Notes: generated by a model not told the origin, from the sequence alone. Counted from the first letter of the stretch, positions 44,132 to 44,503 are shown. The stretch is DNA of 64,000 nt from an uncultured Treponema sp. (GCA_937877535.1 CALFJF010000060.1:250-64249), one strand, 5' to 3'. Translations and numbers: made by a program.

Positions 44132-44503
44132 ATGAGTGAATTCTTAAAAGTTCCAGAGTTGTCTGGAAAAGAAAAGGCGGCTATACTCATAACGGAGATT
44201 GGCTCGGAAGGCACGGAAAAAATATTTGCGTGCCTCCGTCCGTCGGAAGTTGAAAAAATAATGGGTGCGGTAAGCACTCTAAAAAAAGTCGGCATACATG
44301 ATGAGATTCGAGTGCTTTCGGAGTTGAACGTATTTGGAGTTCGTCGAGGAATTAGCCGACCTGTTCGTACCGACGACGAGATTCGCGCGGAAATCGAAAA
44401 AATCCGTGCGGAGCGTGGAATGTCGGGCGATTTACGCGAGTTTATAAATCAGAATCCTGATACGATTGCGAGTGCGCTGAGGGATTGGATGGGGGAGGAA
44501 TGA
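44132..44503 (+). CDS. small FliG-N-domain-like protein with a FliF-C-terminus-like tail (unnamed)
   Basis: 123-aa ORF with a GGAGA Shine-Dalgarno sequence. Its TGA lies 1 nt before the fliG ATG. By-eye ungapped alignment of residues 10-65 to FliG residues 23-78 gives 20/56 identities (KAAI, GS, LR, EVEK, VL). The tail NPDTIASALRDWMGEE compares with the FliF tail HPEDVAMLLRTWLMDD. Confidence 0.6.
   Translation: MSEFLKVPELSGKEKAAILITEIGSEGTEKIFACLRPSEVEKIMGAVSTLKKVGIHDEIRVLSELNVFGVRRGISRPVRTDDEIRAEIEKIRAERGMSGDLREFINQNPDTIASALRDWMGEE

Follow-up and report, generated by a model that had tools for sequence, protein, structure and literature searches.

In the bacterial flagellar motor, FliF's C-terminal tail and FliG's N-terminal domain (FliG_N) fold together, in a 1:1 ratio, into a single armadillo (ARM)-like domain (PDB 5TDY, 5WUJ; PMC7355467). 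It is solely through this FliF_C:FliG_N joint that the torque-generating cytoplasmic (C) ring is mechanically linked to the remainder of the flagellum. Lesions in the domain alter both the size of the C ring and its rotational bias (PMC7355467). In the C ring of Salmonella, FliG_N helices a5-a6 pack on helices a2-a3 of the neighbouring subunit, and an inner sub-ring of FliG_N and FliF_C results (PMC11528121). Here we describe a gene for a protein of 123 amino acids (aa), gene X, located between fliF and fliG in a 64,000-nucleotide (nt) stretch of DNA from an uncultured Treponema sp. (GCA_937877535.1 CALFJF010000060.1:250-64249; the window hereafter). Its product begins with a FliG_N-like head and ends with a FliF_C-like tail. 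X is a real gene under purifying selection and a member of a new, unannotated family, in which known modules form a new domain architecture. Judging from its sequence, the family's probable site of action is the motor joint where the membrane (MS) ring meets the switch ring, or C ring.

Similarity of gene X to FliG and FliF

The head of X was recognised as FliG_N-like from the single sequence. BLASTP aligned X residues 10-66 with residues 23-79 of the adjacent FliG without gaps (20 of 57 identities, E 3e-8), in agreement with the 20 of 56 counted in a preliminary description of the locus. The only Pfam match of X was FliG_N (PF14842; 40.6 bits against a gathering cut-off of 25, E 4e-10). It covered profile positions 1-56 of 104, which is less than the full-length domain of helices a1-a6. 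PF14842 also matched 77 of 82 family members individually (E <= 0.01). When a profile of these 82 sequences was compared with a FliG alignment in hhalign, X 10-73 aligned with FliG 21-86 (probability 98%, E 9e-14). Helices a5-a6 of FliG_N were not detectable in X, and Pfam recovered from it neither FliG_M, the FliM-binding middle domain with the EHPQR motif, nor FliG_C, the torque-helix domain, both of which are present in the adjacent FliG. The fliG equivalog model TIGR00207 scored 29.9 bits over model positions 6-65 of 338, with a cut-off of 226.7, and the 123 aa of X compare with about 330-350 aa for a FliG. Therefore, X is FliG_N-like but is not a FliG.

The predicted fold was consistent with this assignment. 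An AlphaFold2 (AF2) prediction from the 82-sequence alignment gave a compact model with seven helices (predicted local distance difference test score, pLDDT, 86; predicted template modelling score, pTM, 0.60), while a shallow alignment of 18 sequences gave a poor one (pLDDT 62). With the former model as a Foldseek query against PDB, the nine best matches were all FliG N-domains (8wiw, 5tdy, 5wuj, 8umd, 8umx and others). Their probabilities were close to 1.0, yet their E values were modest (1e-3 to 6e-2) and the root-mean-square deviations high; for the FliG_N of 5tdy, 87-102 columns were aligned at 6.7-9.1 Å. Mean-field direct coupling analysis of 91 sequences was dominated by gap artefacts and carried no information on contacts of head with tail.

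The similarity of the tail to the FliG-binding C-terminal peptide of FliF is weak for the window sequence alone and emerges at the level of the family. Window X shares five identities (P, A, L, R and W) out of 16 with the C-terminus of the adjacent FliF. BLASTP detected no match between X and FliF, and a hidden Markov model (HMM) of FliF tails gave window X 1.6 bits, which is not significant as a single-sequence match. The 82-sequence profile, however, aligned with spirochaete FliF tails in hhalign (X 94-123 with FliF 546-575) at a probability of 91.6%, a P value of 8e-7 and a score of 37.6. Two hundred column-shuffled FliF tail alignments, used as controls, scored 10.3 on average (standard deviation 2.2, maximum 19.2), and the reversed FliF tail scored 12.6. 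A longer Viterbi alignment, pairing X 63-123 with FliF 524-575, carried no real signal beyond the last ~30 columns and was discarded.

Further searches in both directions gave the same picture. A 25-column tail profile was compared with 177,635 distinct PDB sequences. It placed 12dr_A, the FliF of a spirochaete, first at E 0.024 (residues 550-565 of 569), with the Salmonella protein in fifth place (residues 536-558 of 560). Both matches lay at the extreme C-terminus with the invariant tryptophan aligned. Among the 904 six-frame open reading frames (ORFs) of the window, the best non-self match of the tail profile was again the extreme C-terminus of FliF, and positions 10-82 and 95-126 of the full family profile matched FliG and the FliF C-terminus, respectively. 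In the reciprocal search with the FliF-tail HMM, the 42 best matches after FliF itself were members of the X family, matched at their C-termini and scoring above all 904 background ORFs. When the FliF tail alone was searched against PDB with phmmer, spirochaete FliF was the only match, which indicates that FliF tails diverge fast. The PDB entries 12dr, 12ds, 12dt, 12du, 12dw and 12eq are solved structures of a 569-aa spirochaete-type FliF (E 8.5e-101 to the window FliF), probably from 2026 in-situ work on the Borrelia export apparatus, and would offer a useful template for modelling X against the spirochaete MS ring.

The tail motif reads L-R-x-F-I-N-x-N-P-D-x-I-A-x-A-L-x-x-W-M/L-x-E-E. Within it, the signature P-x-x-[IV]-A-x-x-[LI]-x-x-W-[LM] is common to X and FliF tails, and ahead of it lies a short helix of amphipathic character, which reads L-R-x-F-I in X and I-R-E-M in the FliF of Salmonella. 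No match to YscJ_FliF or YscJ_FliF_C was found in Pfam or NCBIfam, and X possesses neither the ring-building domains nor the two transmembrane segments of FliF. Between head and tail, the hhalign alignment to FliG ends at residue 73 and that to FliF begins at residue 94. The middle segment between these limits had no detectable match to either protein when the family alignments were compared by hhalign. It is also the least conserved part of X (37% mean identity).

The preliminary description had presented X as resembling a FliG N-domain fused to a FliF C-terminal tail, and had proposed a FliG_N profile search and a Foldseek comparison as checks. Both returned FliG_N, and evidence from profiles, from profile-profile alignment and from the fold speaks for such a fusion. 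For the tail, the identities that it named are present; their significance could not be recovered from the single sequence and came from the family profile.

Operon context, distribution and origin

The flagellar genes of the window are arranged in the order flgB-flgC-fliE-fliF-X-fliG-fliH-fliI-fliJ (Table 1). X follows fliF, whose stop codon is at 44101-44103, after a gap of 28 nt. Its own TGA stop (44501-44503) is separated by one base from the fliG ATG at 44505. No terminator-like sites were found on the + strand between fliF, X and fliG. X shares its strand with the other flagellar genes, is tightly spaced, is not set off by a terminator and retains its synteny in 10 other loci, as befits a member of the flagellar operon. 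The ORF, its ribosome-binding signal and its distance from fliG were exactly as first described. The operon, which had been called otherwise canonical, was recovered through Pfam and NCBIfam matches for FlgC, FliE, FliF, FliG, FliH, FliI and FliJ. The flgB ORF lacked a Pfam match at E <= 1e-3 and was assigned by position and similarity.

Table 1. Features of the fliF-X-fliG region and neighbouring reading frames, in window coordinates.
Feature	Position	Strand	Remarks
gene X	44132..44503	+	123-aa ORF; FliG_N-head/FliF_C-tail chimera of an undescribed Treponema family
Shine-Dalgarno-like GGAGA	44121..44125	+	6 nt before the ATG of X; read from the sequence
X head, residues 10-73	44159..44350	+	homologue of FliG_N helices a1-a4; motif G-x-x-KAA-I-L ... 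E-x-x-VL-x-E
X middle segment, residues 74-93	44351..44410	+	family-specific; after a conserved F/Y-G-x-x-K/R-G-I turn (residues 68-74)
X tail, residues 94-123	44411..44500	+	two short helices; like the FliG-binding FliF C-terminal peptide
fliF	42370..44103	+	577 aa; TIGR00206 E 2e-88
FliF counterpart of X tail	44005..44094	+	FliF residues 546-575
fliG	44505..45563	+	352 aa; complete N, M and C domains; TIGR00207 E 5e-142; Pfam FliG_N, FliG_M, FliG_C
FliG counterpart of X head	44565..44762	+	FliG residues 21-86
flgB ORF	40880..41332	+	
ORF 3′ of fliJ	48630..49031	+	133 aa; no Pfam match
antisense frame across most of fliF	42685..44049	-	454 aa; Arg-, Phe- and Asn-rich

Three neighbouring frames deserve a remark. 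The flgB ORF as listed has 13 extra N-terminal residues relative to the MNTFTRSVD... start in related loci, where its homologues match Flg_bb_rod weakly. The ORF directly 3′ of fliJ could be another lineage-specific flagellar gene; beyond it the flagellar cluster ends, and genes for a PrsW-like protease and an HAD hydrolase follow. The antisense frame across fliF looks like a compositional shadow ORF and not a gene.

Eighteen close homologues of X were recovered, 120-129 aa long and with all three conserved blocks. A search of the family profile against 1.84 billion representatives gave 208 matches at E <= 1e-3, and about 90 of these were proteins of 115-150 aa that aligned end to end. Counted as clusters at 50% identity, the family comprises about 90. 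A word-indexed homologue search with a broad alignment added little (24 proteins). All named members were annotated as “hypothetical protein” of Treponema sp., Treponema ruminis, Treponemataceae or Spirochaetia, and the genomes with matches included those of Treponema saccharophilum DSM 2985 and Treponema zioleckii kT3. We found no Pfam or NCBIfam model specific to the family, and literature searches found no published description of such a protein. X is not known from Treponema pallidum (locus tags TP0399/TP0400), Treponema denticola or Borrelia, and none of the named matches came from them. Conserved motifs occur in all three segments of X. The ratio of nonsynonymous to synonymous substitution rates (dN/dS), estimated from unsaturated pairs, was 0.045 at a dS of 0.46 and about 0.11 at a dS of about 1, close to the values for fliF in the same pairs. 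No transmembrane segment, signal peptide or hydrophobic stretch is visible in the sequence of X, which is read here as that of a small cytoplasmic protein.

The order fliF-X-fliG was found in eight loci and in three metagenome loci, in one case with a member only 29% identical to the window X. Carriers include T. saccharophilum, T. zioleckii and several metagenome-assembled genomes. On one contig X was directly upstream of fliG. On another, from Logan run SRR33002170 (L016:2075-2865), two tandem members of 131 and 127 aa directly follow fliF, and fliG is absent from the ~390 nt that remain 3′ of them. A contig of the same run series (L013) has a member 118 nt upstream of fliG, and the 111 nt that precede this member do not contain fliF. 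The operon appears to have come apart at X in some lineages.

To place these occurrences among close relatives, we surveyed the 80 metagenome loci with the FliG most similar to that of the window (74-88% identical), 73 of which had enough upstream sequence. X was present at three of the 73 junctions. At the other 70, fliF and fliG were directly adjacent, with clean gaps of 7-118 nt and no pseudogene remnant. In a crude neighbour-joining tree of FliF and FliG, built without support values, the X-bearing loci fell in one half, interspersed with loci lacking X. Given this patchy pattern and the 70 junctions without X, the gene in this slot is truly out of the ordinary, confined to a clade and, on repeated occasions, lost or relocated. 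The view that X is an unusual addition to the operon, first put forward in comparison with the flgB operons of T. pallidum and B. burgdorferi, in which fliG follows fliF directly, was therefore borne out. The junction survey proposed along with it found few copies in the slot, but with frames intact in about 90 clusters the gene is not a one-off.

The architecture and position of X suggest an origin by tandem duplication of a segment that started inside the 3′ end of fliF and stopped inside the 5′ end of fliG. An event of this kind would leave a fusion of the fliG 5′ end to the fliF 3′ end between an intact fliF and an intact fliG, matching both the position and the architecture of X. The FliG-like part, up to residue 73, does precede the FliF-like part, from residue 94, which is the order that a duplication predicts. 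Since residues 74-93 match neither parent, the breakpoint cannot be placed. DNA-level similarity to the parents is not expected at the divergence of X. A 154-aa ORF on a 602-bp microbial-mat contig (P0126; L015, 10-474) resembles a recent duplication of the same junction, as it combines the first ~55 aa of FliG with the last transmembrane segment and C-tail of FliF, and the start of fliG repeats after it. The first and last 127 nt of this k127 contig are identical, however, which marks an assembly-graph loop. The ORF may be either a real duplication or a chimeric artefact, and was not used as evidence.

Possible roles at the joint between FliF and FliG

The proteins that X resembles are far more conserved than X itself. 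Across eight X-bearing genomes, mean identity was 87% for the FliF tail and 84% for the FliG_N segment, compared with 48-49% for the head and tail of X. The FliF and FliG encoded beside X keep their canonical docking elements. An obligatory stoichiometric adaptor, one of three roles raised in the preliminary description, looks unlikely in view of these conserved elements and of an X that evolves fast and is often absent; the other two, a self-capped protein and a titrating decoy, would both fit the data. Furthermore, the 70 of 73 relatives without X show that direct docking of FliF to FliG must work in this clade, and X is dispensable in most relatives. From these sequence comparisons we tentatively favour, as a reading that falls somewhat short of even chances, that X is an accessory protein or a modulator at the MS-ring/C-ring interface, complemented by its own tail and dispensable, rather than an obligatory link.

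As a carrier of both halves of the split FliF_C:FliG_N domain, X most likely folds back on itself and would form a closed, soluble copy of the building block of the inner ring. This copy would lack the ring and membrane parts of FliF, the FliG helices a5-a6 that chain FliG_N around the ring, and any connection to FliG_M and FliG_C. Most plausibly, the two halves of X satisfy each other and co-evolve; a fast joint divergence in which the core hydrophobic signature is kept would follow. X could then dock onto the FliG_N-FliF_C sub-ring, its own a2-a3 face accommodating a5-a6 of a FliG, for instance, or could exchange with that sub-ring. Alternatively, it might open and swap with its partners. 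In either case the assembly, ring size or turnover of the rotor could be modulated.

The same pair of elements could instead work in trans, with X as a decoy or competitor. The tail of X would fill the FliF-binding groove of free FliG, or its head would capture the C-tail of FliF, and the coupling of the MS ring to the C ring would be delayed or prevented. X would then negatively regulate the assembly of motors or the number of flagella, or would serve as a holding chaperone for FliG_N or FliF_C, keeping it soluble until assembly. Ligand-like and receptor-like elements are indeed both there, with P-x-x-[IV]-A-x-x-[LI]-x-x-W-[LM] and G-x-x-KAA-I-L kept. Translational coupling with fliF and fliG would put X where its partners are made, its dispensability suits a regulator, and dispersed paralogues under other regulation would suit condition-specific ones. 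We nevertheless consider this role unlikely. A binder of nearly invariant partner surfaces should itself be conserved, whereas the head and tail of X diverge about three times faster, and a chain carrying its own ligand is expected to be auto-inhibited. A stoichiometric role, in which FliF_C docks on the head of X and the tail of X docks on FliG_N as in a daisy chain, or in which X polymerises head to tail into an extra ring, is permitted by the architecture. The contacts proposed would come in the same order as the genes, fliF-X-fliG, the tandem copies after fliF in L016 could lengthen the chain, and chaining by domain swap is an established theme of the FliG ring (PMC7355467). Against it stand the close relatives that leave the slot empty while having nearly identical FliF tails and FliG_N, the fast evolution of X, and the many copies unlinked to flagellar genes; we regard it as very improbable. 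Scarcely better is the prospect that X is a structural rotor part of a gut and rumen treponeme clade, adding, by either of these arrangements, a ring layer at the MS-ring/C-ring joint that alters rotor stoichiometry or compliance. If true, a new motor part would have been made in one step by duplicating the junction of two interacting genes.

Several observations weigh against a modulator acting at this joint. In at least six cases a member is remote from any flagellar gene, its neighbours being an ABC/RND-type exporter, pectinesterase/GidB, glycosyltransferases, ExbB/ExbD, a helicase and an FtsX/hydrolase cluster, and given such neighbourhoods a role of the family outside the motor is possible. 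The tail of the window X is among the most diverged from FliF in the family by the FliF-tail HMM, AF2 confidence for the tail is moderate (pLDDT 68-82), and the likeness of the tail might conceivably reflect convergence on a short amphipathic motif. The duplication origin rests on architecture and position, with no DNA-level trace remaining. The dispersed copies could mean that X is a generic small ARM-like helical module recruited to non-flagellar functions, the slot between fliF and fliG being only the birthplace of the family. This is quite unlikely. Even in dispersed copies conservation is best in two motifs, that of the FliF-like tail and that of the FliG-like helix a1, and several of these copies score above the slot copies with the FliF-tail HMM. 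Linkage to the slot is retained down to 29% identity, and the named members all belong to a motile lineage. Finally, a short, fast-evolving gene annotated only as a hypothetical protein could be what is left of a duplication, in decay and without function, or else an artefact of annotation. The intact frames of 115-150 aa in about 90 clusters and the dN/dS values (0.05-0.2) effectively refute this, to which are added the motifs in three segments, the Shine-Dalgarno sequence with tight coupling, and the clean gaps (7-118 nt) where X is absent.

With both halves of the joint on one small chain, X is a candidate for a new class of motor modulators in spirochaetes and a ready-made probe of how the FliF_C:FliG_N joint folds and exchanges. 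It would also be a clear example of a gene born when a tandem duplication crossed the boundary between two interacting genes, with a product automatically pre-adapted to bind both parents. The family is open to experiment because it occurs in the cultured species T. saccharophilum, T. zioleckii and T. ruminis.

Comparison with known rotor components and regulators

Small, dispensable and lineage-restricted regulators that bind a surface of FliG are known from the EpsE clutch and the PilZ brakes of the YcgR/MotI type. Their resemblance to X is one of proposed function only, with no relationship in sequence or domains, as X has neither a PilZ nor a glycosyltransferase domain. Their site of action is FliG_M/C, at the interface with the stator; the part that X mimics is the joint of the MS ring with the C ring.

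Among rotor proteins, lineage-specific duplications with homology to FliG_N, as in X, have been described in spirochaetes as FliG1 and FliG2 (TP0026 and TP0400 of T. pallidum; PMC1943423). These are full three-domain FliG proteins, whereas X corresponds to part of the N domain. Like X, the FliF-FliG fusions (the full-frame and deletion fusions of Salmonella, and that of Vibrio, PDB 8Z4D) hold the FliF C-tail and FliG_N on one chain, and the 8z4d fusion chain was among the matches when the X profile was searched against PDB. The fusions, in which FliG follows a full-length FliF, tail before head, themselves build the rotor. In X the junction is the reciprocal one, with the head before the tail; X is tiny and coexists with an intact FliF and FliG.

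The nearest known counterpart of X is the split FliF_C:FliG_N domain itself, as seen in Thermotoga maritima (5TDY), Helicobacter pylori (5WUJ) and the inner sub-ring of the Salmonella C ring (8UMD, 8WIW). Like the split domain, X has FliG_N helices a1-a4 and a two-helix FliF C-peptide, with the same hydrophobic positions conserved. Unlike the split domain, it has no match to FliG_N a5-a6, no FliG_M/C and no FliF ring or membrane segments. What two proteins contribute to the known domain, X carries on a single chain of 123 aa, head first and tail last, with a family-specific linker between them.
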